Source of the DNA: a virus
Lineage: Duplodnaviria > Caudoviricetes
Length of the DNA: 64,000 nucleotides
Virus record (IMG/VR): IMGVR_UViG_3300038673_000510
Location: 32,001 to 96,000 of that record
Reading direction: 5' to 3' (one strand)
Notes under the pieces: generated by a model
What the model was told of the DNA's origin: nothing
Seen by the model: only the letters and a program-made list of their open reading frames with translations
The model's database searches: none
Translations under genes and position numbers: made by a program
Part shown: in pieces, positions 4,091-49,508 of the stretch
Layout: every line of letters starts with the position of its first letter
Numbering within the stretch: position 1 is the first letter of the stretch

Positions 4091-4091
4091 G

Positions 4092-7120: not shown

Positions 7121-7155
7121 TAAATAAAAAAGGATAAAATATAAAATATAAAATT

Positions 7156-7956: not shown

Positions 7957-7963
7957 GGTAAAA

Positions 7964-8960: not shown

Positions 8961-9049
8961 AAAAAACAAAAAATTTGCGAAATATATAATAAATAAAAAC
9001 CAACTTATATCTCTTTAGGTTGGTTTTTTACTTTACAGTGGAGAAAAGA

Positions 9050-11619: not shown

Positions 11620-11622
11620 GGA

Positions 11623-11651
11623 TTGACAAGAATTAAAATAAAGATTATAAT
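11623..11651 (+). promoter_or_regulatory. sigma70-type early promoter
   Basis: cttatgagga-TTGACA-17-TATAAT. Confidence 0.85.
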
Positions 11652-11685
11652 AATATCATAAAGGAAAACACAAAAGAAAATAAAA

Positions 11686-28077: not shown

Positions 28078-31056
28078 TTAATCATCCCTCCACGATCCTA
28101 TTATACTGTTTATATCAAGTCCTTCCATTGTACATCCCATTGCATCTCCAAGTTCAATCAATTCTTTAGTTTCGTCATCAATTTCAAAGTCATTAGCTTC
28201 CCAATATTTAATTGTCTTACTTTTTGTTTGTTGTTCTTCAAGATCATTCATAGATTGAACAACATCACCAAAAAGTAAATGAGAAGTTACCATTTTATCT
28301 GTTGCCGCCCAACCAATATTATTAAGAAAGCAATATTGAACTAATGTCATTACTAAGTCATCATGACCAGCAAGCGCTTCAAGTTTACCAGATTTTGAAT
28401 AGCCAAATCCACGAAGTTCATTTATCATACGAACGCTTCTTATTTTAACTTCTTCTTTAACAATCATAGTTTGCATAATAGCAATTCCATTCGCTCTATT
28501 TGTTGTACTCATAGGGAAACCGGGCGTTAATTCTTTTTTAGATTTCCTGTGCCAATATAAACCTTGATACATAGTTGTTGATGCAAAATATTCAGTTACT
28601 GGACCACCAAGACCAGTACTTTCTATAGATAACTTTGCCGTATTATAATAATTACAAATCAATTCTATGATTTGTTTAAATTTTTCTGTATCAACTTTCC
28701 CCCAATACTCGGCCACTTGTGTGCTTGTTTCTGGGTCAAATACAACTGCAGTACTAAAGTCATTTGCACGTCCAGTAGCAACGTCACAATTATGTGTCGG
28801 TATATAATTACAACAATATGTATGATCTTCTGTTTCAAAGTTATAAACTGTTCCAGTATATTGTTGTTTTGTAACTTCGCTAATTTTTAAATATATAAAT
28901 TTATTATCATCAGACAAATGACAGCATCCAATAGATTTACGAATTTTAGGATTAGGTTTAATAGTAATATCTATGTTTAATAAATTCATAAATTTAATAT
29001 TTTCATGAGTTTCTATATTTAGACAATATGTTTCCTTCTGATTTACTATTCTATCTCTGATTGTAACTTGTGAATCCGCCTTACGTAATAATTTTAAATT
29101 AGAGACAACTCCTAATGAAAATAAAATATCTTGTATATCTTGTAATAATTTTAAACTAATTGAAACAAAAGATGAACGAAAATACTTCTTTTTCGCATCT
29201 TTATCATAGTTATTCATTATTGACCCATCACCCAACAAATAACCCTTTACTAATTGAACTTTGTATTTATTAGGAAGAAACTTTACCCACTCTGGAATTT
29301 GTTTGTTGCCAGCCCCCTTACCAAACGTTGAAATTAAAAAATCTGTAAATTGTCTTGACGACCAATGAATTTGCATAGTATTTGTTTCGGCATTTTTAGT
29401 TGAATAAACCTTTCTATTATATTTGTTTAACAAGTTATATATTTTGTCTATTAAATATAATTCTGAAGTTAAATTATGTGATGTTGTAATTCGACAATTA
29501 TATTTTGCATGAAATGATGTATGTCCTTCCGCCAACCATAATCCAATATACCACCATATTTCTTCATCTAATATAATATTAGAATTTAAATTAAAATCTT
29601 TTCGTTTAGATTGATATTGTTCAAAATATTTTATCATATCTAATTCTGTTGTTTTTTCATTATTATATATGTTAGGATAACACAGCCAATCTCCTATATT
29701 AAGTTCTTGAATAGGGTAAAATTTAAAATCATGTTTCCATATTCTTGGATTATAATTTAATTTTCCGGGTCTAATTGTTTTACTTTTTGATGCAAAAACA
29801 GGATGTTCTTCTGTAAATGTTGTGGTGTTATATATATTTTCTACTCTCACAGTATAAATATTTTTATCTTTTACTTTATGATTTATTGTTTTTATTATTT
29901 TTGTTTCTTTTCCATCAATAGAATATAAAACGTCGTTTAATGTAATATCCTCAATTTTTTTTAATCCACTTGTTGTTAAAACTTTTTCACCTGTAGGTAA
30001 ACACACAACTACATATTGTTTCCCCGGCGCAGGTTCTTCCCATATCCAAAATCCCTTTATATAATTAAAGCGTTCATCAAAGTCATCTTTCATTTCCAGC
30101 ATTTTATCAAAATCCTTATAATATCCTTCTGCATCAACATCATCTGGATAAAGAAAATCACATCTAATTGGAGATACTGGTGTCATTTTTTCAAGAATAT
30201 AATTTGGTATAAGTGAGTTTTCCAAATCATAAACTTCTACACCTAAAATTTCTATTTTGTATATACGTTCGCCAAGAGTTTCCCTCATAGCTTTATGCCA
30301 TTCAGCATCTTGATATTGTTCAATATCTGATGTATCTACATCAATTAAGTGAAATTTACTTTCTTGTGGATTTTCTTGTACACCATGTAATAGAGTAAGA
30401 TAGTGATTATTAATTGGATTTTGTGGAAGAGTACTAATAATAAATAATTGTGATGGCATAGTTCTGTTTGTAAATGGCGTTCCTTGTCCTACAGCAAGAG
30501 TAGGAATTGCTGATGCCATTAAACCGCTCTGATTGTCCATCGCTGCAAACTCATCAAGTATTAAAAGTGAAATAGATCCACCTCGACCAGCGTCGCTTCC
30601 TCTTGGAATGGCGGTTACTTTACTGTTATTATGTTTAAAACTCATTGTTGTTTTTGCGAATTCATCTGTTTGTTGTTTGAGCCACAATGGAAGATGATCG
30701 TATATAAACTTTACACGACCAAGCAAATCGGTACTTTCTCTTTGGGTTAATGATACTATTACTACATTTTGTGCTTCAAAAAATAAAGCTCTATATAAAG
30801 CATAACATGCTGTTAACGTAGAGAATCCAGTCTGACGAGTTTTCTTTGATATTATTTGTTTTTTTGATATAAATTCTTTTGCGGCTTTTTTCTGCCATCG
30901 ATACATATTATCTGATAATGCAACTGCGCCTTTAGAGGGGTGAGATACTTTTACATAATTTTCACAAAAATATAAAAAGCCGGTTTTACCCTCGACATCA
31001 GTTAATTTTTTTAATTCGATTTTTATTTCGTCGATTGTTAATTGCGATTTGTTCAT
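28078..31056 (-). CDS. terL: terminase large subunit with intein
   Basis: YFCENYVKV.HP, KTRQTGFS (Walker A), LLILDEFA (Walker B), DVATGRANDFS, GHDDLVM. Confidence 0.95.
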   Translation of the reverse strand: MNKSQLTIDEIKIELKKLTDVEGKTGFLYFCENYVKVSHPSKGAVALSDNMYRWQKKAAKEFISKKQIISKKTRQTGFSTLTACYALYRALFFEAQNVVIVSLTQRESTDLLGRVKFIYDHLPLWLKQQTDEFAKTTMSFKHNNSKVTAIPRGSDAGRGGSISLLILDEFAAMDNQSGLMASAIPTLAVGQGTPFTNRTMPSQLFIISTLPQNPINNHYLTLLHGVQENPQESKFHLIDVDTSDIEQYQDAEWHKAMRETLGERIYKIEILGVEVYDLENSLIPNYILEKMTPVSPIRCDFLYPDDVDAEGYYKDFDKMLEMKDDFDERFNYIKGFWIWEEPAPGKQYVVVCLPTGEKVLTTSGLKKIEDITLNDVLYSIDGKETKIIKTINHKVKDKNIYTVRVENIYNTTTFTEEHPVFASKSKTIRPGKLNYNPRIWKHDFKFYPIQELNIGDWLCYPNIYNNEKTTELDMIKYFEQYQSKRKDFNLNSNIILDEEIWWYIGLWLAEGHTSFHAKYNCRITTSHNLTSELYLIDKIYNLLNKYNRKVYSTKNAETNTMQIHWSSRQFTDFLISTFGKGAGNKQIPEWVKFLPNKYKVQLVKGYLLGDGSIMNNYDKDAKKKYFRSSFVSISLKLLQDIQDILFSLGVVSNLKLLRKADSQVTIRDRIVNQKETYCLNIETHENIKFMNLLNIDITIKPNPKIRKSIGCCHLSDDNKFIYLKISEVTKQQYTGTVYNFETEDHTYCCNYIPTHNCDVATGRANDFSTAVVFDPETSTQVAEYWGKVDTEKFKQIIELICNYYNTAKLSIESTGLGGPVTEYFASTTMYQGLYWHRKSKKELTPGFPMSTTNRANGIAIMQTMIVKEEVKIRSVRMINELRGFGYSKSGKLEALAGHDDLVMTLVQYCFLNNIGWAATDKMVTSHLLFGDVVQSMNDLEEQQTKSKTIKYWEANDFEIDDETKELIELGDAMGCTMEGLDINSIIGSWRDD
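28789..30003 (-). mobile_element. intein (405 aa) with LAGLIDADG homing endonuclease in TerL
   Basis: YVVV|CLPTGEKV...TEEHP...IGLWLAEG...KGYLLGDG...VYNFETEDHTY..THN|CDVATG. Confidence 0.93.
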
Positions 31057-35071: not shown

Positions 35072-35740
35072 ATGGAACAGTTTAAAACAATATATATATC
35101 AGAAGCTTTTGTACCTGACAAATTTGGGTTTACAGAAGAAATTATTGGAGAAGATGCTACCGGTCCTATTAAAGCTCTTATTCTTGAGGGAGAATTCCAG
35201 CGTGCTGAAGCACCTAATCGAAATAAAAGAGTTTATTCTGAAAGTCTTCTTTCACGTGAAACAAACAAACTACAGCAGTTTATTAAAGAGAGAAATGGAC
35301 TTTTAATGGGCATGGACCATCCACTTCCAGGTGATAATGAACAAGCTATGACGCTTATTCAAAGAATGGGTATGTCTGAAAGTTGTGGATTATGTAAACA
35401 TCTTGAAATGGCTAATAAAGTTGTTTATGGTAAAGCACAAATTCTTGAAGGCGACCATGGTCATGGTGATAAACTTGCTGCTATGATAAGAGCAAAATTT
35501 AAGCCTGGAGTAAGTTCTCGCGGTATTGGTGGTAAAGCTTCATATCATACTTCTGAAGGATATGTGTATGTTCCTGAAGATTATAATATGATTACATATG
35601 ACTTTGTATCTCAACCAAGTACATATAACGCTATTCTTTCACAAAGATTTAATGAAGAACTTCAGTATTTTGAAAATTCTTTAAAACAATACACAAGAAC
35701 TATGTGGTCTGTATTAACAGATATAAAAAGTAAATATTAA
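35072..35740 (+). CDS. prohead core protease (T4 gp21-like)
   Basis: EGEFQRAE.PNRNKRVYS, GMDHP, GVSSRGIG, YDFVSQPS. Confidence 0.93.
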   Translation: MEQFKTIYISEAFVPDKFGFTEEIIGEDATGPIKALILEGEFQRAEAPNRNKRVYSESLLSRETNKLQQFIKERNGLLMGMDHPLPGDNEQAMTLIQRMGMSESCGLCKHLEMANKVVYGKAQILEGDHGHGDKLAAMIRAKFKPGVSSRGIGGKASYHTSEGYVYVPEDYNMITYDFVSQPSTYNAILSQRFNEELQYFENSLKQYTRTMWSVLTDIKSKY

Positions 35741-36219: not shown

Positions 36220-37137
36220 ATGAAAATTCCAGAAATATTAAGCCAGATAAATCTTAATGAAGAACAAATACAAGCTCTTGACACATTCTTTAAAGAGTGG
36301 ACTGAAGAAATTAAGACTTCTGTTATAAATGAAGGTGCAATCCCTGAAGGCTATATAAAGAAAGAAGATGGTGAAAAAGCATTTAATCTTTATACACAAG
36401 ATGCTGAAAAGGCTTTTGAACTTTTTAAAGAAGACAGTGAGAAGGCTTTTGAGCTTGCTAAACAAGATTGGCAAGAAGAGTTTAATGGTATTCTTGAAGC
36501 TAAACAGAATCAGTATACCGAAGCTATGGCAAAGGCAATGCAAGATATATATGAAGAAATAGAAGTTAGAGTAAAAAATGACTTTATGGTTTCTGAAGAA
36601 TATAAAGCATTCCAAAAAGTAAAAGATGCTATTGTTCCTGTTGTTATTTCTGAGAGTCAAAAAGAAATACTCGATAAAATAAAAACAGTAGAAGAAAAAG
36701 AAGCTGTTCTTGAGGCTAATGAAAGAGAACTTTCTAAGAATGTAGCTATTAATACTTTACTTCAAGATTTTCCACAGGAATATGTAGAAACTGTTAAAAA
36801 GTTTATTTCTAAGGCAAGTACTGAAGCTGAAGTATATGAAAGATTTAATACAATTGTAGAAATGGTAGATAAGGGACTTATCAATAAAAATGGTAAAGCT
36901 ACAACTGTAAATGAAGATGTTGAGCCTGCTACTAAAGCGACGTTCAGACGTAAAGTACAGCAATCACAGCAAGCTGCGAAAGAAGTAAAAGCAAACAAGC
37001 AAACTGCGCAGCCTGTTTTTGAATCTGCAACTGGAAAAGAAACTAAACCTGCTCCTGATAAATCTAAGGGAAAACCTGGATTAACCGATTGGGAACGCAC
37101 AGTAATTGGTTTAGCGTTTCCTCAGCAGACTATATAA
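36220..37137 (+). CDS. prohead scaffold (T4 gp22-like)
   Basis: Glu-rich coiled coil directly upstream of the MCP. Confidence 0.75.
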   Translation: MKIPEILSQINLNEEQIQALDTFFKEWTEEIKTSVINEGAIPEGYIKKEDGEKAFNLYTQDAEKAFELFKEDSEKAFELAKQDWQEEFNGILEAKQNQYTEAMAKAMQDIYEEIEVRVKNDFMVSEEYKAFQKVKDAIVPVVISESQKEILDKIKTVEEKEAVLEANERELSKNVAINTLLQDFPQEYVETVKKFISKASTEAEVYERFNTIVEMVDKGLINKNGKATTVNEDVEPATKATFRRKVQQSQQAAKEVKANKQTAQPVFESATGKETKPAPDKSKGKPGLTDWERTVIGLAFPQQTI

Positions 37138-37168: not shown

Positions 37169-38749
37169 ATGTATTATAATGAAGCTTATGAATTAAGAAA
37201 ACAAGAAGAAGATAAGCTCTTCAAAAAATGGGAAGAAGCTCTGAACATAGATGGTGGTGTAAGAGACGAACACATGGCTCGTACTACAGCTATATGTCTC
37301 GAAAACTATATGTCATATCTTCATGGAAACCCACATTTAGTGGCTGAAGATCAGATTCAGACAAACGCATTCACAGGAGTTAACCTTGCTCTATTAGGTC
37401 TTATTGCTCGTGTTATTCCTACTCTTGTTGGTGCTGAACTTGTAGGTATTCAAGCGCTTCCTACACCTAAGTCTCCTATCTTCACAATGAGATGGTATTA
37501 CTCAAATAACAAAGGTCAGACACGTAAAGGTGATGAACTTTGGAAATCTCCTACAGATTTCTCAAGATTCCCAGTAGGTCTTGATGCAAATTACTCTTCA
37601 CAGATTATCGTTGAAGACGTTGCTACTGGTGCAGCAGAACACTTACTTGAATTTGGTAACACTAATGATAACATTCGTGCGACTAAGCCTTTCATCTTTG
37701 CTGGTTCTATGTACATCACTGCTTTTAATGCAGAAACAAAAGATGTTGTTATCGAAGGTTATGTACCTGGTGCTTATATGACAGCTGGTACTTCAGTTGC
37801 TTTCTCAGTTGTTCGTGCAGTTGAAACTGGACATGACGCTCTTATTACAGGTCTTACATTCGCAAACACAGGTGGCGTTCTTGGAATTACTGGAACACGT
37901 GCTGCTTCTGTAACTATTGGCGGTTCAACAGTTGCTCTTAACTGGCGCCTAAAATATGAATACAAAGGTGAAGCTGATCCTAACGCTCCTGAACTTAACT
38001 TTGAAATCACAGATGAAACTGTTGAAGTTATCAGACGTCAGTTAAGAGGAAAATATACAATGGACGCAGCTTATGACCTACAGAAGTTACATGGTCTTAA
38101 TGTTGATGCTGAGCTTACTAACATGATGAAAATCGAGTTACAAGCTGAGATCAACCGCGAAATTGTTGCTGACCTTCGTGCTATGGCTGCAATCGTTAAA
38201 ACTCTTGACTTCAATACTGTTGGTGATGGTGCTACTGGTATAACAATCCGTGGAAACTACGATGATGCTCACAAGATTCTTCTTGATAGTATCAACACAA
38301 TGTCTGCTGAAGTATTCAACATTGGTCGTTTAGGAAAAGCTAACTTCGTACTTGGAAATCCAACTACTCTTGCTTTCCTTGATCGTGTACCTGGATTCGT
38401 TGGTGCTGGTGTAAATTACAACGGTAAAGAACTTGGTTATGCTGGTTCACTTGGTGGAAAAATGAAATTCTACATCGATCCTAACTATCCTAAGAATGAA
38501 CTTCTTATAGGTTACAAAGGACCAGGTGCTCTTGATACTGGATATATCCATGCTCCTTATCTTCCTATCATTGCTACTCCTACGATGATTAACCAGGAAA
38601 CTGGAGACCCATCGAAGATCTTCTACACAAGATATGGTAAAACATATAATATGTATGGACCTACAGGACCAAGTAATAAAATTTTGATGGGGGAATATCA
38701 ATATGCTCGTCTTATCCTCAAGAATTTCCCAACAAGTTTAACATTCTAA
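37169..38749 (+). CDS. major capsid protein (T4 gp23-like)
   Basis: ELVGIQALPTP, RRQLRGKYT..AAYDLQKLHGLN..AEL, AEINREI, GYIHAPY, TRYG; strong codon bias. Confidence 0.96.
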   Translation: MYYNEAYELRKQEEDKLFKKWEEALNIDGGVRDEHMARTTAICLENYMSYLHGNPHLVAEDQIQTNAFTGVNLALLGLIARVIPTLVGAELVGIQALPTPKSPIFTMRWYYSNNKGQTRKGDELWKSPTDFSRFPVGLDANYSSQIIVEDVATGAAEHLLEFGNTNDNIRATKPFIFAGSMYITAFNAETKDVVIEGYVPGAYMTAGTSVAFSVVRAVETGHDALITGLTFANTGGVLGITGTRAASVTIGGSTVALNWRLKYEYKGEADPNAPELNFEITDETVEVIRRQLRGKYTMDAAYDLQKLHGLNVDAELTNMMKIELQAEINREIVADLRAMAAIVKTLDFNTVGDGATGITIRGNYDDAHKILLDSINTMSAEVFNIGRLGKANFVLGNPTTLAFLDRVPGFVGAGVNYNGKELGYAGSLGGKMKFYIDPNYPKNELLIGYKGPGALDTGYIHAPYLPIIATPTMINQETGDPSKIFYTRYGKTYNMYGPTGPSNKILMGEYQYARLILKNFPTSLTF

Positions 38750-38843: not shown

Positions 38844-39455
38844 ATGGAATATATAGTATATAAAATAACAAATAAAGTAAACAATAAAATTTATATAGGG
38901 CTTACAAATAATTTTCAAAAAAGAAAACAAGGACACCTAAGTGATTGTTTTAATGAAAAATCTAAACGATACAATCATTTAATATATAGAGCAATAAGAA
39001 AGTATGGATTAGAAAATTTTCAGTGGGATATATTAAAAACTTATCCAGATAGAAAATCTATGGAACTTGGAGAAAAGTATTATATAGCTTATTATGAAAG
39101 TAACAATAAAAATAATGGATATAACTGTACTATAGGTGGTGACGGTGGACCAATTCGATTAGGTATGAAAACTTCCGAAGAAACTAAAAAGAAAATTAGT
39201 CTATCATGTAAAGGTAAAGTAATATCTGAAGAACAGAAGAAACAAATTTCTGAAACATTAAAAGGTAGAAAGCCATCAAATAATACTATTATAGCAAATA
39301 GTAGACCTATTAAAAATATAGTTACTGGTGAAATGTTTATATCAGTAAAAGAAGCTTATGAAAAAGACCAAGTTAGCAAAAGTACTATTTTTAGAATTTT
39401 AAATGGTAAACAAGATAAAGATTATAAGCACAATTATGTGTATCAATATATGTAG
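38844..39455 (+). CDS. free-standing GIY-YIG homing endonuclease (NUMOD-type tail)
   Basis: IVYKITNKVNNKIYIG, GYNCTIGG, SEETKKKIS. Confidence 0.9.
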   Translation: MEYIVYKITNKVNNKIYIGLTNNFQKRKQGHLSDCFNEKSKRYNHLIYRAIRKYGLENFQWDILKTYPDRKSMELGEKYYIAYYESNNKNNGYNCTIGGDGGPIRLGMKTSEETKKKISLSCKGKVISEEQKKQISETLKGRKPSNNTIIANSRPIKNIVTGEMFISVKEAYEKDQVSKSTIFRILNGKQDKDYKHNYVYQYM

Positions 39456-39511: not shown

Positions 39512-39564
39512 ATTTGTTCTCTGTAATATAATAGCATATATTATAGATGAGGATTTATTTGATT

Positions 39565-40242
39565 ATGTTTAAAACTTACCTTGAATATTTGACACGTAAA
39601 GAAAGAAGTATTGCTGCTAATAATGGACAGACCAACCTTACTCAAATAAATAAAGTGACCGCGAGAGAGGATGATAAGCTTCCAGAATGGTGGTATAGTA
39701 ATTTTTATACTACTCCCGAACATGTGACAACTAAAAAAGAATATATAGATTATTATTCAGATAAAATTAGTGAGGTTACTCCCAATACTGATTATAAAAA
39801 AATAAGAAAGAGAGTAATAGTCGTTCCACAGGGTAAAGCTTATTGTGGGGATTCAAATGAAGTAATACATAATCCTATAATTGGATATATGATGTGCCTT
39901 GGATTAATTCCTATGACTATTGATCTTTCAGATTATCAATGGACTTATGAGCCGGTTGAGGCTAAAAATCTTTTAGCACTTGAAATTGCAGCCTATGGGT
40001 CATATCAATCAGAAATATATTTTTCGGAAAGTTATAATCCTTATACTTTGAAAGATATTAAAAAAATTATTAATCGACACTATAATGAAGTTTTAAAAAA
40101 ATTATTTAATATCACTACAGATGATATTCAGTTTATGGATCACCATTTAGAAGAATTAGAAAATGATGATGAAGATGATCCAGCTTACGATGACGATGAC
40201 GATGTTTTTGCTTATTATGATAATCCATTTGAAGAGAGTTAA
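39565..40242 (+). CDS. NGQTNL paralog family, YLE-leader protein with acidic tail
   Basis: MFKTYLEYLTRKERSIAANNGQTNL; GAGGA SD supports start 39565. Confidence 0.7.
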   Translation: MFKTYLEYLTRKERSIAANNGQTNLTQINKVTAREDDKLPEWWYSNFYTTPEHVTTKKEYIDYYSDKISEVTPNTDYKKIRKRVIVVPQGKAYCGDSNEVIHNPIIGYMMCLGLIPMTIDLSDYQWTYEPVEAKNLLALEIAAYGSYQSEIYFSESYNPYTLKDIKKIINRHYNEVLKKLFNITTDDIQFMDHHLEELENDDEDDPAYDDDDDVFAYYDNPFEES

Positions 40243-40276
40243 ATTATGAAAAAAACATTAGATTTTTATTTAGAGA
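39978..40276 (+). repeat. Block A, copy 1 (copy 2 at 43311-43610)
   Basis: About 300 bp near-identical; one substitution and A7 vs A8 seen. Confidence 0.95.
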
Positions 40277-40641
40277 TGATATTTCAAAAAGATAATAAAG
40301 ATTTTACTAAAAATTTTAAGTATTCGGCAAAACTCGAGACAATAGAAAGACATTTATTTGGTGATTATCTTTATATATTGTCTGAAAAAGTTGAAAATAA
40401 AGTTCCATATAAATATAAATGGAAAAAAGCAAAATCAAGAAAAGATTCAGATAAATATAATCAGTATAGAATCATAGTTGACTCAGCAACTGGCGAACCT
40501 GTTGTAAGATACGAATGGGCTACTTCAATCTTTGAATCTGATATTCCTAAAGAACAATTTTTTAAAGAAATAAAAGATTTTGTACAAGAAGAAAAAATAA
40601 AATTAAAAAGGTTAATGGATACAATGTTTCCTAAATATTAA
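40246..40641 (+). CDS. YLE-leader hypothetical protein (copy 1)
   Basis: MKKTLDFYLE-MIFQKD... Confidence 0.7.
   Translation: MKKTLDFYLEMIFQKDNKDFTKNFKYSAKLETIERHLFGDYLYILSEKVENKVPYKYKWKKAKSRKDSDKYNQYRIIVDSATGEPVVRYEWATSIFESDIPKEQFFKEIKDFVQEEKIKLKRLMDTMFPKY
40267..40641 (+). repeat. Block B, copy 1 (copy 2 at 42937-43311)
   Basis: 375-bp direct repeat; translated products identical from YLE onward. Confidence 0.95.
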
Positions 40642-40642
40642 T

Positions 40643-41014
40643 ATGTTAAAAATATATTTAGAAAATATATCACAAGAACGTTGGCAGGAATATATAGAAA
40701 GAATACCGATGCTTAAAGCTGGTGTTGAGGTACTTCATAAACTTGAAAAATTTGGTGAAGCATATATAGTTGGTGGCGCAGTTCGTGATATAGTTTCAGG
40801 TACTAAAGAGCCACATGATATAGATATAGCAACTAATGTGCCAATGGAAGTAATTGCTAAAATTTTTGGTAATGATAAAATCAATGATATAGGTGCCTCA
40901 AAAGATTTTGGAATAATTACTTTACAGTATAAAGGCTTTAATTATGAAATAGCTCAATTTAGATCGGAATCTTATGTTGAACCAGATTATGTACAAAGAA
41001 TAATAGAGGAATAA
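40643..41014 (+). CDS. cca: CCA-adding tRNA nucleotidyltransferase, N-terminal fragment
   Basis: AYIVGGAVRD...HDIDIATN (motif A), KDFGII, YEIAQFRSE. Confidence 0.9.
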   Translation: MLKIYLENISQERWQEYIERIPMLKAGVEVLHKLEKFGEAYIVGGAVRDIVSGTKEPHDIDIATNVPMEVIAKIFGNDKINDIGASKDFGIITLQYKGFNYEIAQFRSESYVEPDYVQRIIEE

Positions 41015-41015
41015 A

Positions 41016-41768
41016 ATGTACGGATATGTTTATAAAACAACGAACTTGATAAATAATAAAATTTATATAGGACAAAAGGTTTCTTCGAAATTTTTGTTAT
41101 CATATTATGGTTCTGGTGTAATTTTGAAACGTGCACTTAAAAAATATGGAAAGGATAATTTTTTAATTGAAATGCTATGTGAATGTGATTCTCAAAATGA
41201 TTTAGATTCTAAGGAAATTTTATTTATTGATAAATATAAAAATGAACATAATGAACAATGTTATAATATTGCCTCCGGTTCTAAATTTGGTGGTAATCAA
41301 ATGAAATATGCTACTAACGAAAAAATTCAAGAAAAAAATCAAAAAATTAGTATTGCTAATAAAGGAAAAAAAGCTTGGAATAGGGGTTTAACCATTAATG
41401 ATCCAAGAGTTAAATTGTATGCCGATAAACATAAGGGTTTTACTTATTCAGAGGCATCTTTAGAAAAAATGTCTATAAGTGCAAAAATTAGAGCTAATAA
41501 ACCAGAAAATGTTAATAGGATGAAAAATAATAATCCGGCGCAAAATCCTATTATTGCAGAAAAAATTAGTAAATCATTACAAGGTAAAATGGTATTAGAT
41601 AAAAATCCTAACTGGAATACTTTAGATGAAAATAAAATTAAGGAAATGTATTTTGCTGGATATAAAATTAAAGATATAGCTAATTATTTTGAAGTTGGGA
41701 CTCAATCGATTACCAGAAGAATAAAAAAATTAAAATTAGCAAAAAGATTAAGGAGTTCTTTAATATGA
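41016..41768 (+). mobile_element. GIY-YIG (Seg-like) homing endonuclease inserted within cca
   Basis: GYVYKTTNLINNKIYIGQ, YYGSG, CYNIASG; C-terminal HTH-like segment. Confidence 0.92.
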
Positions 41769-42922
41769 AATTAGGCCCTATAGAAAAATTTAATCCTAAT
41801 AATCCAGAACATCTTGATCCCAAAAAATATAAAATAACTTATAAAAGTTCTGGTCGTAAACCAACAAGTGTTCAAATTGAAATGTCATTTAAAGAGGATG
41901 CTAAAAGAAGAGATTTCACTTTCAACGCTATGGCAATAGATAGTAAAGGAAATGTTATAGATTATTTTGATGGACAACAAGCTATTCAGAGTAAAATTCT
42001 TAAAACCGTTGGTGATCCAGAACAAAGGTTTACTGAAGATTATTTAAGAATGATGCGAGCAATTAGATTTGCAAGTAGACTTGGATTTAATATTGATCCT
42101 CAAACTGGTGAGGCTATTAAAAAGCATGCCACTAAAATTTCAGGAATATCATCAGAAAGAATCTTAAAAGAACTATTAAGTATGGCAGAACAGTCTGGAA
42201 GTAAATTTGCTGATGCTATTATTGGGTTAAATGATTTTGGATTACTTCAACATATTCTGCCAGAGATAGTTTCCATGGATGAATATGAGCATGATGAAGA
42301 AACTCACCCCGAAGGAAATGTATATCAACACACGCTTGCTGCATTAAGAGCAAACGGAATTGTTGATCCAATTATAAATCTTGCTATTTTATTACATGAT
42401 ATAGGGAAGACTACTACACGAACTTATAAAGATAATGGAAAGGTTCAATATCTTGGACATGCACAGGCGGGAATATCATTAATTGAAAAAATTGCAAATA
42501 GACTTAAGATGGACAATGATGCAAAAGACGCATTAATCTTTGCGGCCGAAAATCATATGAAAATGCACAATTTACTTAATATGAGCAATGCAAAGATATA
42601 CGCTTTAATTAAAAATAAGAATTGGAACGTATTGTATAATGTTGCTCTTGCGGACCAAAAAGCGCGGGGAAATCTCTTCCAAAAGGCCGATTGGGACAAG
42701 ACTGTAGAGCGAATTGAAGATGTAACAAATAAGTATGCTAATCAAGATTTTCAAAAAGCTATTAAGAAAGTTCTTAATGGTGAAATGGTTATGCAGTTAA
42801 AGGGATTAAAACCAGGTCCAGAAGTCGGTAAAATTATTAATCAAACTATGGATTGGATTTTAAATAAAAATATTGATATCAATGATATCGAAAAAATTAA
42901 GAGGTATATAATAAGCATATGA
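41765..42922 (+). CDS. cca: CCA-adding enzyme, C-terminal fragment with HD domain
   Basis: GRKP, EDAKRRDFTFNAMA, RFTEDYLRMMRAIRFASR, SERILKEL, HPEGNVYQHT, LLHDIGK, PGPEVG; AGGAG SD at 41751. Confidence 0.92.
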   Translation: MKLGPIEKFNPNNPEHLDPKKYKITYKSSGRKPTSVQIEMSFKEDAKRRDFTFNAMAIDSKGNVIDYFDGQQAIQSKILKTVGDPEQRFTEDYLRMMRAIRFASRLGFNIDPQTGEAIKKHATKISGISSERILKELLSMAEQSGSKFADAIIGLNDFGLLQHILPEIVSMDEYEHDEETHPEGNVYQHTLAALRANGIVDPIINLAILLHDIGKTTTRTYKDNGKVQYLGHAQAGISLIEKIANRLKMDNDAKDALIFAAENHMKMHNLLNMSNAKIYALIKNKNWNVLYNVALADQKARGNLFQKADWDKTVERIEDVTNKYANQDFQKAIKKVLNGEMVMQLKGLKPGPEVGKIINQTMDWILNKNIDINDIEKIKRYIISI

Positions 42923-43311
42923 CAACTTTAGAAATGTATTTAGAGATGATATTTCAAAAAGATAATAAAGATTTTACTAAAAATTTTAAGTATTCGGCAA
43001 AACTCGAGACAATAGAAAGACATTTATTTGGTGATTATCTTTATATATTGTCTGAAAAAGTTGAAAATAAAGTTCCATATAAATATAAATGGAAAAAAGC
43101 AAAATCAAGAAAAGATTCAGATAAATATAATCAGTATAGAATCATAGTTGACTCAGCAACTGGCGAACCTGTTGTAAGATACGAATGGGCTACTTCAATC
43201 TTTGAATCTGATATTCCTAAAGAACAATTTTTTAAAGAAATAAAAGATTTTGTACAAGAAGAAAAAATAAAATTAAAAAGGTTAATGGATACAATGTTTC
43301 CTAAATATTAA
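42919..43311 (+). CDS. YLE-leader hypothetical protein (copy 2, different leader)
   Basis: MTTLEMYLE-MIFQKD... Confidence 0.7.
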   Translation: MTTLEMYLEMIFQKDNKDFTKNFKYSAKLETIERHLFGDYLYILSEKVENKVPYKYKWKKAKSRKDSDKYNQYRIIVDSATGEPVVRYEWATSIFESDIPKEQFFKEIKDFVQEEKIKLKRLMDTMFPKY

Positions 43312-43575
43312 CTTGAAATTGCAGCCTATGGGTCATATCAATCAGAAATATATTTTTCGGAAAGTTATAATCCTTATACTTTGAAAGATATTAAAAAAAT
43401 TATTAATCGACACTATAATGAAGTTTTAAAAAAATTATTTAATATCACTACAGATGATATTCAGTTTATGGATCACCATTTAGAAGAATTAGAAAATGAT
43501 GATGAAGATGATCCAGCTTACGATGACGATGACGATGTTTTTGCTTATTATGATAATCCATTTGAAGAGAATTAA
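43311..43575 (+). pseudogene. duplicated 3' fragment of the 39565 gene
   Basis: Block A copy 2, begins mid-gene. Confidence 0.8.
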
Positions 43576-43578
43576 ATT

Positions 43579-44107
43579 ATGAAAAAAAACATTAGATTTT
43601 TATTTAGAGAGAGTACAAGATCAACAGATGATAAATGAAGGTTTTGTTGATAGATTAGGTGCTGGTGTTTTGACAGCATTAATCACACTTGGTAGTGTTG
43701 GTATTGGTGGCGGATTAGTTGTTGGTTTTAGTGCGTCACAAAAGAACGCTTTGTTAAATGGTGAGACAATAAATTTTGAACTTGACAAATCAACCTCACA
43801 TCTTGATTATACAAAAACAATGGCAAGACAGATGGCTTATCCAAATGGACACCCAATGAAAACTTTACCAATGAATCCAGCAACAGATTCTTCTCCGGAT
43901 GAAGTAATGTTTAAAATGAAAATTGATGATAATAAAGCGAATAGTGATTTTGCTTCAAATGGAGTTTATGTTGATATAAAGAATAAAATTATTTATGTTA
44001 GTAGAGATAGAGTAGAAAAACGTAGTCCATTTAAATTACATGGCGATGAAAAAGAAGCTAAACGATCAATTGAAAAACAACGTGGCAATATTGATAGTAT
44101 GAAGTAA
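43579..44107 (+). CDS. YLE-leader protein with hydrophobic segment; leader out of frame by one A
   Basis: With A7, ATG 43579 reads MKKTLDFYLERVQDQQ-MINEGFVD; the sequence has A8; downstream ATG 43628 is in frame. Confidence 0.6.
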
Positions 44108-44109
44108 TT

Positions 44110-44397
44110 ATGAAAAAAAGTTTACATGATTATATTGAAACACTTGATTCTCTTGAGAATGATGTTATTAGTATCAATTTATTTGATGATAAAATTATTC
44201 AAGCATTAAAAGATGCCAGAGATGGTGATATAATTTTTATGCCGGAATCTGATTATGGTTTTGGAGAAATATATAAAATTCACAATTGGTTAATTGTGTT
44301 TTTAATTCCTAATTTTGGCGGAATTCCAGAATTTCATAATGCCTATCGTTTATCTGATGTTGAAGATATGATTCAAGAATTAAGAAGTTTAACATAA
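44110..44397 (+). CDS. YIE-leader hypothetical protein
   Basis: MKKSLHDYIET. Confidence 0.65.
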   Translation: MKKSLHDYIETLDSLENDVISINLFDDKIIQALKDARDGDIIFMPESDYGFGEIYKIHNWLIVFLIPNFGGIPEFHNAYRLSDVEDMIQELRSLT

Positions 44398-44406
44398 TGG
44401 TATAAT

Positions 44407-44901
44407 ATGAGTTTAGCATTATATTTAGAAATTACTAACAATCATGATTTTGATCGCAATGCTTATTTGAAATGGAAAAGAAAAAATGTAACTTACCGTG
44501 GAATAAAATCTTTTGGTAAAGATAATGAAGTGTATGGTTCTTTTGGAAGAGGACTATACACTGTTCCATTATCAAATAAGTCTATGGCAAAACAATATGG
44601 AAAACTTTATTTCGTAGTTGGAGCTATACCAAAAAATCCCAAAATTGTACAGTCTATAAATGATGCTGAAATACTTTTACAAAAATTAATTATAGATTAT
44701 TGTAAAGGACAAAATCATACAAAGGATTATGATCCTTCTTTTTTTGAAAATCATACATCTATGGATAAAGAGCTTGTTAAACAAGGATATGATGGTTTTA
44801 TAATTAAAGGCAGAGAAATTGTTAATTATAAACCCAATAATATTCTTTACTTTCCAACGGAAGAAGAAGTAATACATCACTGGAAAAATATTGCGGAGTA
44901 A
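44407..44901 (+). CDS. ADP-ribosyltransferase-like (ART-PolyVal-type) protein with YLE leader
   Basis: TYRG, FGRGLYT, AKQYG, PKNP, GYDG, EIVNYKPNNI. Confidence 0.65.
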   Translation: MSLALYLEITNNHDFDRNAYLKWKRKNVTYRGIKSFGKDNEVYGSFGRGLYTVPLSNKSMAKQYGKLYFVVGAIPKNPKIVQSINDAEILLQKLIIDYCKGQNHTKDYDPSFFENHTSMDKELVKQGYDGFIIKGREIVNYKPNNILYFPTEEEVIHHWKNIAE

Positions 44902-44905
44902 TAAA

Positions 44906-45490
44906 ATGATATTTAGAGATTATCTTGAAATAATGACACGTCAAGAAATGCGACGTGCCGCTAACGCTGGTCAAACAAATCTTGAAAAAGTTGGTGAAGT
45001 ATTGTCACGTAGCGATAGTGGATTATTGCCAAGATGGTTTCTAATATTGTTAGAAGAACAACTCAATATGGAAAACATAAGATATAAATCAGATTTTATT
45101 GAAGTAATGAATGAAACAATATTTGATAATAAGATTAAACCATACCCACAAAACGCACCAGAAAGTATTAGATTTATAATAACAAAAAATGGAGAATGCT
45201 TCTGGTGTGTTGCTGATGATGCTATTCATGGATCCATTCTTGCTTATATGATGTGCAAAGGTAAACTTCAAATGTTTGAAGAATTATTAGATTATGGATC
45301 TTGGTCTGAAACAATTGCATCTACTGATTATTTTATAGCTTTTATATGGGATGCTGATGATAGTGAAACAAAATTAGCTGAAAGTTATGCTTATGAACTT
45401 GAAGAAATGGTTATGAGAAAATTATTTGTGCCACCATATAAAGATTATTTATTAAATATAACAGGGTCATTAGAAATAAGTCCAAGTTAA
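44906..45490 (+). CDS. NGQTNL paralog family, YLE-leader protein
   Basis: MIFRDYLEIMTRQEMRRAANAGQTNL. Confidence 0.7.
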   Translation: MIFRDYLEIMTRQEMRRAANAGQTNLEKVGEVLSRSDSGLLPRWFLILLEEQLNMENIRYKSDFIEVMNETIFDNKIKPYPQNAPESIRFIITKNGECFWCVADDAIHGSILAYMMCKGKLQMFEELLDYGSWSETIASTDYFIAFIWDADDSETKLAESYAYELEEMVMRKLFVPPYKDYLLNITGSLEISPS

Positions 45491-45501
45491 GAGAGAATAC
45501 A

Positions 45502-45999
45502 ATGAGAAATAATTTAGCGCTTTATTTAGAATACTTACAATACCCAGAACCAGTTGAATTAACTGATTTATATAATGAAGAAGATATTGTAAAGGGAAAA
45601 ACCAATAATGGAAAGGGATGGTTTTACGCTGGCAATGATGAACATAAAAGTGAATTCTTTATGCTTAAACCTGGAGAAAACCATTGGGATCCATCTGTAG
45701 CAAAAAAGATGCAAAGTGTTGGATGGATTGATAAACCTGATTCCAATACTATGGAAAAAATATTTGCTGAAAATAAAATTATAAGATTTATTATAAATAC
45801 TAATAATGAAAATGAACCAGTTACGGTTGAATCTGGTGGACAACTTGATAATTCAATTTATATTGGTATTATGAAATTAATGAAAAATAAAGTTGCTGGT
45901 CCTTTACAAAAAACAGCCAAAATAATTTGGGAATATGGAAAATCTGTTGGGCAAGCAATTAAAAAATCATTTTCTGCGCAGGAGTGGCAATTAGCATGA
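45502..45999 (+). CDS. YLE-leader hypothetical protein
   Basis: MRNNLALYLEY. Confidence 0.65.
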   Translation: MRNNLALYLEYLQYPEPVELTDLYNEEDIVKGKTNNGKGWFYAGNDEHKSEFFMLKPGENHWDPSVAKKMQSVGWIDKPDSNTMEKIFAENKIIRFIINTNNENEPVTVESGGQLDNSIYIGIMKLMKNKVAGPLQKTAKIIWEYGKSVGQAIKKSFSAQEWQLA

Positions 46000-46625
46000 T
46001 ATTTAAAGATTATTTAGAAATGATGACAAGAAGCGAAATGAGACAAGCTGCTCAAAATGGTCAAACAAATTTATTGCCTGGTCTTTCATCATTGAATAAA
46101 AAAGAAGTATTACTTCCCGAGTGGATGACAGATATGTTTGAAAATTGGGGAGCGGGAAATGTACATGGGATGAGGTATAAATCTGATGTAATTGATAGAT
46201 TTCAAAATGATGTTTTTAATGCCAAATTAAAACCTGTTCCATTTGATGTGCCAGAAAGTCTTACTAAAAGAATAAGAATTATTATTACTAAAAATGGCGA
46301 ATGTTTTTGGTGTCGAGGATATAATGGAATTCATGGAAGTATTCTTGTGTATATGATGTGTATCGGTAAACTCCCGATGAAGAAAAGTTTTATTGATTAT
46401 GATTATAAAGATGGATGGTGTTGGAATAATAATATAACTAAAACTTTTATAGCATTAGAAATGTTTTATGACCATAATAGAATAATTGTAAGAATGGCAG
46501 AAAGTTATCAAGAATTTTATGGAGCGCAGTTAAAACAATTATATCAAGATAAAACTTATGAAGCTTTAGTAATGAAGTTTCTTAATTATCCTATACAAGA
46601 TATAAAACTTAAATATCAATATTAA
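45996..46625 (+). CDS. NGQTNL paralog family, YLE-leader protein
   Basis: MIFKDYLEMMTRSEMRQAAQNGQTNL. Confidence 0.7.
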   Translation: MIFKDYLEMMTRSEMRQAAQNGQTNLLPGLSSLNKKEVLLPEWMTDMFENWGAGNVHGMRYKSDVIDRFQNDVFNAKLKPVPFDVPESLTKRIRIIITKNGECFWCRGYNGIHGSILVYMMCIGKLPMKKSFIDYDYKDGWCWNNNITKTFIALEMFYDHNRIIVRMAESYQEFYGAQLKQLYQDKTYEALVMKFLNYPIQDIKLKYQY

Positions 46626-47107
46626 ATATGTTTGACTTGTTTTTCAATTTGTTCTTTTACTAAATCAATATTATTTTTTATATCCTTTTCTTTAAATCTC
46701 AGAAGTGGTATTCCCAGTTCTTTTAACATATTGTTTTTGAATTTATCATTTCTGAGATTTTTACGTTGTATTTTAGTTAAATCAGAATATTTTTGATCGC
46801 CCTCTTGATATGCCGACGCATGATAGTAATCTCCATCGCATTCAATACAAAATGTATAATTAATCCCATCTGTAACATAAAAATCAAACTTCTTTGCTCT
46901 TCCTTTATATATAAAAATTTTTTCTTGAATATAATAGAGTCCCATAGAATCTAATAACACTCTTACGCGTCTTTCAATACTATTTTCTTTTTGTGTACCA
47001 TCAGCATTTTTATATTGTTGCAGATTTTTAATTGCCTTAGCTTTTGCTTTTTTATATCTGTCTTTATTTTGTTTTCGTATCTTCTTTGCTGTTAATCGGT
47101 CTACCAT
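46622..47107 (-). CDS. Vsr/DUF559-like PD-(D/E)xK endonuclease
   Basis: SIERRV, FDFY, IECDGDYYH, DKFKN...LLRFKE. Confidence 0.8.
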   Translation of the reverse strand: MVDRLTAKKIRKQNKDRYKKAKAKAIKNLQQYKNADGTQKENSIERRVRVLLDSMGLYYIQEKIFIYKGRAKKFDFYVTDGINYTFCIECDGDYYHASAYQEGDQKYSDLTKIQRKNLRNDKFKNNMLKELGIPLLRFKEKDIKNNIDLVKEQIEKQVKHI

Positions 47108-47208
47108 AAAATTCTCCTAATATATTTATTATACATTTTTTTTGGCGAAAAGTGTATACTATTTGTAATATAATTAAGAAATAAAACAAGTTGGGAGTAT
47201 AACCAAAT

Positions 47209-48837
47209 ATGATTAATATGAAGGCTTATTTTGAAGGTGCAGTTAGTGCTAAAAATTCTGGACGTGTTGTTGATATTCTTAAATCCAGAGTATCGCGTCA
47301 AGTAGGACAACAAATATATGCTACAACTGCAATGGATGTAGTTATTAAAGATGGTAAAAAAGTTTATGGTATTTTCTTAATGTTCGAAGATGGCCATCAT
47401 GCTATAAGATTAAACTGGATTTCTACTGATACATCTGCTTCAATTGATAGTATTGACTTTTGGATTCATGTGTCTAAAAATCCTCAATATTCTGCAGATA
47501 CAAAAGATATGAACATAGTTCAAATTGTTGAACTTATTGACGATGTTGTTAAGGGCGTAAATCTTAAAGAAGAAGATACAATTCAAGAAAGTATAAAACC
47601 GGTATTAGAAGCAGCAGGAAAAACATTTAAAGATGTAAAAAATCTTTTAGAGAATAAGGGATATATTATTGAAAAGGATCCCGCGTTTACTGTCCGTCGT
47701 TATCTTGTAACTGATAAAAAAACAAAAGAAGTAACACCAATTCGTTATATTCCAGTTATGGATGAAATGTATGGCGAAATAATGCAAATCGGTGTTCCTG
47801 CATTCTTAAATAAGTATAATGCTGCTGGGGGCGGAGCAAAAACTTCAGGTGGTCGTTTAAAAGCAGCATCACCAGAAACTCCAGTAGAAGTAAAAAGTTC
47901 TCCATTTGATTCATTATTTGAAGATCCACTAAATGAAAAAGAATTGTTTAAGTTACTTGAAACTGGAGTCGAAGAAGTTAAAGCTGGTTTATCAAAAACT
48001 ATGATTGTATCTGGAGACCCTGGAGTTGGAAAATCGTTTACAATATTACAAGGAATGGTTGGAACCAATTTTGAGGTTTTTAAAGGAACAATCACATCTG
48101 CTGCGGCTCTTTATAAGACCTTGTTTCTTAACAATGAATCAAAGAAAACTCTCATCTTTGATGACCTTGATACTCTTCTTGAAGATAGAGAATGTGTGAA
48201 TATTCTTAAAGGAGCCCTTGAAAGTGTACAAAATCCAGAAGTTAGTTATCTTAGCAATAACTGTGTTCATCCTACTTACTACAAAGTTCTTACAGGTGAA
48301 TACGACGCCAATGATCCTAAAGTACGTCAGTCTTTAAAATTACTAAAGATTGATCTTGATGCAATGAGCGAAAAACGTCTTGAGGCTATGCAGATGAGAG
48401 CATCTGATCCATATTCTGCAGCAGCTATATTGCCTAATAAATTTGTTTTCTTATCTCGTATTATATTCATTACAAATAAATATCTTGACGAACTTCCTTC
48501 TGCCATTAAGTCACGTGGTGGTACAAAAGTAGAAGTAAACCTTACTCTTGCTGAAATAGTAAAACGTATTGGTAGCGTTCTTGATAAACTTGATATTCCA
48601 GTAGAGCCAGGTACACCTCCAATTAGTATGGCAGCAAGAAAAGCTGCACTAAAATATTGTAACGATGTTCTTATTCCTTATGGAAAAATAAAGAAACTTG
48701 ATTTTAGAGGATTCTTTGAGATTTGTAAAAAAGCTTCCGGTGATGCACCACAAGAAGTTTGGTATCGTTGGGTATCTCGCATGCTTCAAGAAAGTTATGG
48801 TGAAAAAATGATTGTTGGCAAGAGGGAGAAAAGATAA
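47209..48837 (+). CDS. AAA+ ATPase with N-terminal YFE leader and an internal domain shared with 18489/19229
   Basis: SGDPGVGKS, LIFDDLD, NILKGALE, RIIFITN, AIKSRG. Confidence 0.8.
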   Translation: MINMKAYFEGAVSAKNSGRVVDILKSRVSRQVGQQIYATTAMDVVIKDGKKVYGIFLMFEDGHHAIRLNWISTDTSASIDSIDFWIHVSKNPQYSADTKDMNIVQIVELIDDVVKGVNLKEEDTIQESIKPVLEAAGKTFKDVKNLLENKGYIIEKDPAFTVRRYLVTDKKTKEVTPIRYIPVMDEMYGEIMQIGVPAFLNKYNAAGGGAKTSGGRLKAASPETPVEVKSSPFDSLFEDPLNEKELFKLLETGVEEVKAGLSKTMIVSGDPGVGKSFTILQGMVGTNFEVFKGTITSAAALYKTLFLNNESKKTLIFDDLDTLLEDRECVNILKGALESVQNPEVSYLSNNCVHPTYYKVLTGEYDANDPKVRQSLKLLKIDLDAMSEKRLEAMQMRASDPYSAAAILPNKFVFLSRIIFITNKYLDELPSAIKSRGGTKVEVNLTLAEIVKRIGSVLDKLDIPVEPGTPPISMAARKAALKYCNDVLIPYGKIKKLDFRGFFEICKKASGDAPQEVWYRWVSRMLQESYGEKMIVGKREKR

Positions 48838-49508
48838 TGACTGTTTGTGCTAATCATAATTGCAATAAAGAATTTAATAAAGGTAATATTAGACAAATAT
48901 ATTGTTCGAAAAAATGTGCACAAACAATGAGTACATTTTTTCGAACAAAAAGAAATACACTAAAACATATAAATAAAAAATGTTTAATTTGTGGGCAAGT
49001 TGTTATTTCAACAAAAAAGTATTGTTCTAATGAATGTGCAAAAATAGCTGTAAAAAAACAACGTAAAGATTGGCAACAGACCCATATTTTAGAAAGCAAA
49101 GAAAATAAAAAAAGATGGAATAATACACATAAAGATTATCTTAATAATTATGAAAAAAATAAAAAGAAAAGCAATATAAATTATAAAATTAGAAAAGTAT
49201 TGGGTTCAAGACTAACTAATGTTATTAAAAGATGTAATGGAGTGAAAAGCGCATCAAGTCTTAAACTTCTTGGGTGTTCAATTGAAGATGCAAGACAATA
49301 TTTGGAAAGTAAATTTCAACAAGGAATGACATGGAATAATCATGGTTTTGGTGATGATAAGTGGCATATTGACCATATAATCCCTTGTGATGCTTTTGAT
49401 TTAACAAAACCCGAAGAACAAACAAAATGCTTTCATTATACCAATCTTCAACCATTATGGCAATATGATAATTTAAGTAAAAGTAACAAAATAGGAGTTA
49501 AAATATGA
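48837..49508 (+). CDS. HNH homing endonuclease with Cys-rich N-terminus
   Basis: LLGCS..GMTWNNHG..WHIDHIIPC...CFHYTNLQPLW..DNLSKSN. Confidence 0.9.
   Translation: MTVCANHNCNKEFNKGNIRQIYCSKKCAQTMSTFFRTKRNTLKHINKKCLICGQVVISTKKYCSNECAKIAVKKQRKDWQQTHILESKENKKRWNNTHKDYLNNYEKNKKKSNINYKIRKVLGSRLTNVIKRCNGVKSASSLKLLGCSIEDARQYLESKFQQGMTWNNHGFGDDKWHIDHIIPCDAFDLTKPEEQTKCFHYTNLQPLWQYDNLSKSNKIGVKI

Follow-up and report, generated by a model that had tools for sequence, protein, structure and literature searches.

T-even internal proteins are a diverse set with only their targeting sequence in common (PMC3012670). In IPII and IPIII of phage T4 this sequence is a 10-residue propeptide, in which residues 4 and 7 steer the protein to the core and residues 8 and 10 serve cleavage by gp21 at an L/I-x-E site; a hydrophobic residue at P2 is tolerated, as seen in the L-I-E site of gp21 itself (PMC9026906). 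For phages phiKZ, 201phi2-1 and SPN3US, a gp21-related protease cuts after Glu, and dozens of head proteins, enzymes included, are processed and many of them ejected (PMC9026906). The subject here is a cassette of genes sharing an N-terminal leader, located at positions 39523-48837 of a 64,000-nucleotide stretch of Caudoviricetes DNA (the window), which spans bases 32001-96000 of the 116,958-bp contig of IMG/VR record IMGVR_UViG_3300038673_000510 (guanine-plus-cytosine (GC) content ~30%). With a probability of roughly 0.7, judged from sequence and from analogy with T4, the leader is a prohead-targeting, protease-cleaved propeptide and this clade's version of the T4 capsid-targeting sequence (CTS). 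A preliminary description of the window had proposed a cleaved leader of this kind, and it is now the best-supported explanation in view of the head machinery, the CTS layout, the leaders of orthologous proteins and the overlap with the virion proteome of cyanophage S-CREM2.

Ten open reading frames (ORFs) of the cassette between 39565 and 48837 begin with M-x(1-6)-[L/F/M]-x-x-Y-[L/I/F]-E, namely those starting at 39565, 40246, 40643, 42919, 44110, 44407, 44906, 45502, 45996 and 47209, and their N-termini were found as first quoted. The four endonuclease-like genes in and around the cassette (38844, 41016, 46622 on the minus strand, and 48837) carry no leader, again as had been stated. The earlier count of about 11 unrelated genes is to be lowered: the ten leaders sit on seven families, as 39565, 44906 and 45996 are paralogs and 40246 and 42919 are near-identical duplicates, and one further member is frame-shifted. 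The seven cargo families comprise an ADP-ribosyltransferase (ART)-like protein, a P-loop ATPase, the N-terminal piece of a CCA-adding enzyme and four without a recognised function; only the leader is common to them, with Pfam matches to different families or to none. Genome-wide, Y-L-E lies within the first 16 residues of 17 of the 177 ORFs, compared to 0.56 expected from its internal frequency, and the six-residue pattern was observed 21 times where 1.3 occurrences are expected. When 19 leaders from across the genome are aligned on Glu, P6 is Leu, Phe or Met in 19/19, P3 is Tyr in 19/19 and P1 is Glu in 19/19, while P2 is Leu in 15 and Ile, Met or Phe in the rest; the Glu falls at residue 6-11, with a variable distance from the initial Met to the motif. 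The Tyr, Leu and Glu codons of the leaders (TAT/TAC, TTA/CTT, GAA/GAG) are used in the same proportions as elsewhere in the genome, therefore it is the peptide that is constrained, rather than a DNA or RNA word. As to where in the genome the tag occurs, a check proposed at the outset, the strong N-terminal enrichment stands and the tag is commoner in the structural block (10/38 ORFs) than in the early block (6/110; p 0.001), but it is also present in early genes.

The positions that matter in T4 IPII and IPIII are Y4, F7, I8 and E10, and a T4-type leader was defined as an N-terminal propeptide of ~7-19 residues ending in the Glu of an L/I-x-E site. The tag described here likewise places hydrophobic residues at i, i+3 and i+4 ahead of a terminal Glu; it differs from the T4 CTS (F-I-A-E) in that the Glu of Y-L-E follows the hydrophobic pair immediately, with no intervening residue. 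Y-L-E fits a general rule of a hydrophobic residue at P3, any residue at P2 and Glu at P1. The canonical form Y-[LI]-x-E occurs only in the prohead protease, in an HD_4 protein and in one paralog of a cassette family (the P family). As for the head itself, a T4-type set is present, with an S77 (gp21-family) protease, a gp23-like capsid protein and a gp22-like scaffold, the last by position. The gene order, from portal through small core genes, protease, scaffold and capsid to a GIY-YIG endonuclease, is that of T4, and on its gene content the phage is a distant member of the T4 superfamily. The protease gene (35072..35740, plus strand) matches Pfam Peptidase_S77 (E 5e-17) and the PHROG head maturation protease (E 1e-31), and its product, the presumed leader-removing enzyme, itself bears Y-I-S-E near its N-terminus (residues 8-11). 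The scaffold gene (36220..37137, plus strand) is gp22-like by position only, lying between the protease and capsid genes as in T4; family searches gave no match for its product, which is Glu-rich with five hydrophobic-[LIF]-E sites and is presumed to be the docking partner of the leader. The major capsid protein (37169..38749, plus strand) is gp23-like, with 27% identity by tblastn to many T4-like capsid proteins.

A link between such leaders and virions is provided by cyanophage S-CREM2 (OR473000), whose virion proteome has been published (PMC10665884, Table 3). N-termini were scored for ORFs 1-23 and 145-180, 59 ORFs in all. Among ORFs 1-23, leaders were seen in ORF6, a S-adenosylmethionine hydrolase (F-L-E), in ORF13 (F-L-T-E), in ORF14, an APH-like kinase (F-L-T-E), in ORF15 (F-N-E), and in ORF12, a Cas9-like nuclease with F-M-A-E near residue 25, comparable to the long propeptide of IPI. 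These five leader-bearing ORFs make up five of the six that were detected in virions by mass spectrometry, while the other 17 hold no leader (Fisher p 1.8e-4). ORF154, a virion cytidylyltransferase, has a leader ending in F-L-T-E, and over the 59 ORFs the leader-versus-virion table is 6/1 against 9/43 (p 7e-4). ORF6 and ORFs 12-15 form a leader-tagged cluster (3837-13331), every member of which is in the virion proteome. As these leader-bearing virion enzymes lie among repair and methylase genes, a non-structural location is no argument against packaging. In PMC10665884 there is no occurrence of the terms 'capsid targeting' or 'internal', and the virion enzymes are not linked to a targeting sequence there. 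A leader is also present on the Ser/Thr kinase of phage S-CRM01 annotated as g130; putative Ser/Thr kinases occur in S-CRM01 virions according to Dreher 2011, as cited by PMC10665884, and g130 is taken to be that virion kinase. The match between leader and virion in S-CREM2 points to a rule that applies far outside the T-even phages.

Comparison of homologs indicates that the tag is portable and takes a form specific to each phage clade, as expected of a signal read by a phage-encoded partner. Close relatives of the 47209 ATPase have leaders ending in Y-F-E, Y-I-E or L-L-E, and distant ones in Y-L-I-E, F-L-N-E or F-V-S-E. Homologs of the ART-like protein share a common core from about residue 17, ahead of which variable N-termini end in Y-I-N-E, Y-L-N-E, F-I-N-E or Y-F-E. 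Ordinary CCA-adding enzymes have ~20 untagged residues before the GGxVRD motif, whereas a phage subfamily with a ~25-residue extension has T4-type leaders ending in Y-F-T-E, Y-L-I-E or Y-I-N-E; the two members closest to this phage have F-L-E and Y-L-E, and the 40643 protein shares the N-terminal extension. A loose leader pattern was found in 24 of 47 CCA homologs with a long N-terminus and in 11 of 85 with a short one. Homologs of a DUF6267 protein encoded outside the cassette come mostly from T4-like cyanophages, pelagiphages and a Methylophilales phage; their leaders end in F-L-T-E, Y-L-I-E or F-I-T-E, with Y-L-E in the copies nearest to this phage. Nearly all of these DUF6267 homologs have a targeting-like leader. 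The relatives L006 and L007 also have small genes that bear this Y-L-E tag and are arranged in runs. A tblastn search of cultured phages gave no match to the ART-like protein, and since the matches to the ATPase and the CCA-adding enzyme cover core domains only, these cultured homologs give no link to a proteome.

If the leader is a targeting propeptide, it would dock each newly made protein onto the scaffolding core during prohead assembly, the gp21-family (S77) prohead protease would then cut after the Glu, and the mature protein, free inside the head, would exit with the DNA at infection. The tagged proteins would thus probably be packed into the head and delivered with the DNA, by analogy with T4; delivery before phage gene expression, an anti-defence role and packaging of the split CCA enzyme may follow. 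Promoter motifs bear on when the cassette is transcribed. The motif GTAATATAA occurs 14 times on the plus strand and twice on the minus strand, and precedes, in intergenic positions, the cassette (39523) as well as the post-portal, scaffold and ATPase (47165) genes and several others downstream (for example at window positions 36187, 39523, 47165 and 53613). A late-type motif had been said to head the cassette, and this holds: GTAATATAA lies at 39523..39531 on the plus strand, just 3' of a hairpin and T-run and 42 nt 5' of the 39565 start, with a second copy at 47165..47173 on the same strand 5' of the ATPase gene. Sigma-70-like early promoters (TTGACA, 17 nt, TATAAT) were found at genome 7-57 kb only, with none in the block that contains the cassette. 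The T4 late promoter TATAAATA was considered as the late motif and set aside, as it is not enriched (22 vs 14 on the two strands) and GTAATATAA fits better. The capsid gene alone has a TATAAATA-type site, 36 nt 5' of its start. There appear to be two promoter classes, with GTAATATAA in place of the TATAAATA of T4, and on these motifs the cassette is predicted to be transcribed late. The capsid gene of L006 and L007 is directly followed by a gene that, judged by size and order, resembles the one at window 49505, so the cassette looks inserted into the late head-neck block; here, neck, sheath and tube genes follow downstream of it from 49505. The segment 39523-48837 would accordingly be a late-transcribed insert between the capsid and neck genes which has gathered seven cargo families, with homing endonucleases interspersed.

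Several observations weigh against reading the leader as a cleaved targeting propeptide, the first of which concern protease specificity. The T4 rule calls for Leu or Ile at P3, whereas here P3 is Tyr with Leu at P2, so that either the specificity differs or Tyr is tolerated. T4 gp23 has a 65-residue propeptide cleaved at Glu65, and in a MAFFT alignment this site falls on I-C-L-E45 of the capsid protein described here, with Leu44-Glu45 invariant and I-V-L-E as the counterpart in L006 (58% capsid-protein identity). No [LI]-x-E site was found in the first 60 residues of the capsid protein. A second candidate site 15 residues downstream, L-V-A-E60 (L-I-A-E in L006), fits the T4 rule, and because of it the capsid site alone leaves a change of protease rule undecided. 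The capsid site had been entertained as proof of shifted protease specificity until L-V-A-E60 was noticed, and was then dropped in that role. The density of hydrophobic-L-E sites in head-core proteins was likewise not used, being only ~2x the genome average and confounded by Glu richness. The loose motif is also imperfect in T4 itself: in a sample of 93 T4 ORFs it finds IPII, IPIII, gp24, Alt, gp21, gp22, gp68 and Inh, and also gp30 ligase, segE, pseT.1, vs.5 and e.5, which are not known to be packaged. The N-terminus of T4 RnlA is leader-like, so that F-L-E at the start of the RNA ligase (window 13624) may be intrinsic; this gene was left out of the tagged count for that reason. In addition, the split CCA enzyme has the leader on its N-terminal piece only, and the tag also occurs on some genes of early or replication regions.

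The last point corrects the preliminary description, in which the leader was special to the cassette; about ten further genes are tagged. They encode an AAA_33 kinase (genome 5947), two small proteins (genome 6473 and 6739), the products of genes at genome 22823, 106692, 111478 and 113828, a DUF5661 protein (genome 111191), the DUF6267 protein (genome 107882-109135), an HD_4 hydrolase with the Y-[LI]-x-E variant (genome 5372) and a fourth P-family paralog in the early region with the leader Y-I-V-E (window 6446-7120, genome 38446). The spacer form at 6446 and the Y-L-E of the cassette P copies coexist in one genome. Pfam matches of the kinase, HD_4 and DUF6267 proteins start downstream of the leader. 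In the DUF6267 protein, which is tagged, a ligase-like KxDG motif is found, and in several phages its gene has helicase or primase neighbours; these features are no less compatible with a role in the cytoplasm than with packaging. K-x-D-G is typical of ligase and capping nucleotidyltransferases, and the helicase or primase neighbours are seen here, in S-CRM01 and in Melnitz. DUF6267 may be an unrecognised ligase of T4-like marine phages; no solved relative was found by sequence, and it is not mentioned in the literature searched. These genes speak for a tag recognised by some other partner that coevolves with the clade, as a degradation tag, a chaperone or localisation tag or a tag for a replication/repair complex, with no packaging in the head. 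The tagged kinase, HD_4 hydrolase and ligase-like DUF6267 protein are all in non-structural regions, the replication-gene neighbourhood of DUF6267 is kept across phages, and the N-termini of T4 ligase and RnlA are similar without known packaging. Such a partner would leave unexplained why the leader shares its layout and terminal Glu with the T4 CTS, why leader-bearing enzymes from a non-structural region of S-CREM2 were found in its virion proteome, and why the cassette sits in a late head operon, and on this balance it is considered unlikely without being negligible.

Ahead of the cassette is a GIY-YIG homing endonuclease gene without leader (38844..39455, plus strand; PF01541 on the identical gene in assembly L024), in the same place as segD of T4. 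Three P-family members follow within the cassette, all on the plus strand, leader-tagged and paralogous to one another: member 1 at 39565..40242 (225 aa), member 2 at 44906..45490 (194 aa) and member 3 at 45996..46625 (209 aa). This family had no Pfam or PHROG match and no usable Atlas match, and its AF2 model, with a predicted local distance difference test (pLDDT) score of 69, had no fold match. The CCA-adding enzyme is encoded in two pieces on the plus strand, a leader-tagged N-terminal piece of 123 aa (40643..41014, Pfam PolyA_pol positions 1-74 of 126) and a C-terminal piece of 385 aa without leader (41765..42922, PolyA_pol 69-125 of 126, PolyA_pol_RNAbd and HD). Membership of the family was judged by a PolyA_pol head with GGxVRD, an RNA-binding domain and an HD domain, and the two pieces together are a predicted class II CCA-adding enzyme of the poly(A) polymerase family, split inside the head domain. 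The gene is split by a GIY-YIG-like endonuclease gene without leader (41016..41768, plus strand) whose N-terminus resembles that of 38844, and Rfam revealed no group I intron. Stand-alone CCA N-terminal pieces of ~100-128 aa are numerous among the database homologs (e.g. P0282, P0283, P0287 and P0297). The split may thus be widespread rather than a local accident.

The leader-tagged protein at 44407..44901 (plus strand, 164 aa) was modelled by AF2 with a pLDDT of 90. All leading fold matches are ARTs, at a moderate Z of 4.5-5.9 and a Foldseek E of 5e-3 or worse, and include diphtheria toxin, cholix, PARPs, tankyrases, MbcT and a cyanophage pre-ejectosome chain. The criteria for an ART were the core fold together with three features, namely a conserved Arg, a strand containing Ser/Thr and a catalytic Glu; in 51 homologs R31, Y51/T52 and R136-E137 are invariant or nearly so. 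PF18760 is matched on one homolog, while the 44407 protein itself has no Pfam match. On its model, it can be described as ART-like. The P-loop ATPase (47209..48837, plus strand, 542 aa, leader Y-F-E) matches phrog_1250 (E 1e-23). The remaining tagged proteins on the plus strand are of 95 aa (44110..44397, with Y-I-E), of 165 aa (45502..45999, no Pfam or PHROG match) and the duplicated pair at 40246 and 42919; none of these three families had a recognisable family or fold in Pfam, PHROG or fold searches. Two genes without leader complete the insert: a nuclease-like gene of 161 aa (46622..47107, minus strand; weak DUF2726 on the identical gene in assembly L016) and an HNH-like endonuclease gene which closes it (48837..49508, plus strand), with a treble-clef match and an HNH-type motif near the C-terminus read from the sequence. 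When cultured phages were searched for near-identical DNA, the cassette had no match.

With four cassette families lacking a recognisable enzymatic fold, the proteins could be targeted and cleaved and yet be core or scaffold filler, degraded or expelled like T4 gp22, gp67 and gp68, with nothing functional injected; in T4, most core proteins are indeed reduced to peptides, which exit the head (PMC9026906). Folded enzymes such as the ART-like protein with its pLDDT of 90, the ATPase and the CCA piece are hard to see as filler, and the equivalents in S-CREM2 are present in mature virions, which makes this explanation improbable.

A further explanation comes from the duplications within the cassette. 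Segment 39978-40276 recurs at 43311-43610 and segment 40254-40641 at 42924-43311 (99-100% identical), and the repeats form a permuted 664-bp direct duplication (S1-S2 ... S2'-S1') around the CCA gene. The second repeat encodes the leader-tagged protein of 130 aa at 42919..43311 (plus strand, copy B'), which has 99-100% nucleotide identity to 40254-40641 and its own leader. Adjacent to it, 43311..43610 (plus strand) is a repeated 3' fragment of the 39565 gene, a 100% repeat of 39978-40276 bar one extra A, with a leader start at 43579. The switch between the repeats lies inside the Y-L-E codons: the 131-aa protein at 40246..40641 (plus strand, copy B) is a chimera of the 43579 leader and the 42919 body. 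An old idea holds that conserved leader-coding bases aid the shuffling of internal-protein genes, and a chimera joined at the Y-L-E codons fits it; in the favoured explanation, the leader-coding bases double as a recombination joint between cargo genes. At 43579 the ATG is followed by A8 and by a leader identical to that of 40246, with the frame closing after 19 codons. An A7 run, the condition set in the preliminary description, would let the leader run directly into the ORF at 43628..44107 (plus strand, 159 aa, with a hydrophobic N-terminal segment), which gains a leader only after a one-base frame change. The run is A8, not A7, in three assemblies (this one, L016 and L017), and the 43628 ORF is out of frame; the frame may have shifted recently, the A run may allow slippage, or the ORF may start at 43628 and have no leader. 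Independent assemblies break in the duplication, so it may be one molecule or a mixture of variants.

It follows from the permuted duplication that part of the leader similarity is recent copying, and the shared start could as a whole be a functionless peptide, a by-product of recombination at a common translation-start module. The 40246 chimera with its crossover inside the Y-L-E codons, the 664-bp duplication flanking the CCA gene and the paralogy of three cassette members would all suit such an origin. It would not be expected to vary synonymous codons as they vary genome-wide while keeping the residues fixed, to leave the distance from Met to motif variable, or to place the tag on unrelated families and on orthologs across distant clades in a clade-specific form, and it is held to be very improbable. 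That the motif arises by chance from N-terminal codon bias, in a genome of ~30% GC with AT-rich codons for Lys, Asn, Ile, Tyr, Leu and Glu, is rejected by the counts given above (17 vs 0.56 for Y-L-E; 21 vs 1.3 for the six-residue pattern). Taken together, the alternatives retain a serious but minority share of the probability.

The wider genome was seen in the Joint Genome Institute (JGI) contig Ga0496409_0000093 of 194,212 bp, which has the same genes and an identical 664-bp segment at each end; it ends in the cassette duplication on both sides. As this segment is common to both ends, the genome circle would be ~193.5 kb, and the true genome is probably circular or circularly permuted, the 117-kb contig being a part only. 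The large terminase (window 28078-31056, minus strand, 992 aa) has its terminase matches split between residues 28-292 and 781-905, and the ~450-residue unrelated block within it may be an intein or other insert.

Proteins injected with phage DNA act ahead of the reading of phage genes and are a first line against host defences; to our knowledge, few have been described apart from those of T4, N4, P22 and the giant phages. Should the leader prove reliable, sequence alone would reveal the injected cargo of uncultured T4-like phages. If the prohead reading is true, virion-delivered functions would extend to RNA repair, through the ART-like protein, the ATPase and the CCA piece here and the kinase and HD hydrolase elsewhere in the genome; no report of virion delivery of a CCA-adding enzyme was found in the literature searched. 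More tentatively, and at clearly less than even odds, the leader could load an entire enzyme kit (CCA-adding enzyme, polynucleotide-kinase-like kinase, HD phosphohydrolase, ART and AAA ATPase) which is injected and counters tRNA-cleaving and abortive-infection defences before phage expression, both here and in many uncultured T4-like phages, and the leader alone could suffice to predict injected proteins from sequence throughout the T4 superfamily. Of more value than the locus itself may be the wider occurrence of T4-type leaders: in uncultured and cyanobacterial T4-like phages they are borne by CCA-adding enzymes, ART-like proteins and ATPases, and by enzymes detected in virions.

In comparison with known systems, the internal proteins IPI, IPII and IPIII of T4 are the nearest, as both systems have a short N-terminal propeptide on unrelated proteins and a head of the gp21/gp22/gp23 type; however, T4 has 3 tagged genes and this phage about twenty, and the predicted cargo here includes enzymes of 400-540 aa. 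T4 Alt is a packaged and injected ART with a short N-terminal propeptide ending in Glu, and the 44407 protein is likewise ART-like and leader-tagged, but Alt has 682 aa compared to its 164 aa, no sequence similarity between the two was found, and the ART fold match is moderate (Z 5-6). The phages phiKZ, 201phi2-1 and SPN3US resemble this one in having a gp21-related protease and a three-residue motif with Glu; they differ in that the motif is S/A/G-x-E and the propeptides are long and varied, and not a common tag of 6-11 residues. In S-CREM2 and S-CRM01 leader-bearing enzymes come from outside the structural module, and S-CREM2 ORF6 even has the spacer-less F-L-E form, as here; these are Kyanoviridae with another host and other cargo. 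What sets this clade apart is the spacer-less Y-L-E, about twenty tagged genes with ten of them in one late cassette, and an enzyme-rich cargo that includes a CCA piece. The mechanism is textbook T4 biology, and the value lies in the breadth of its use and in the new cargo rather than in the principle.

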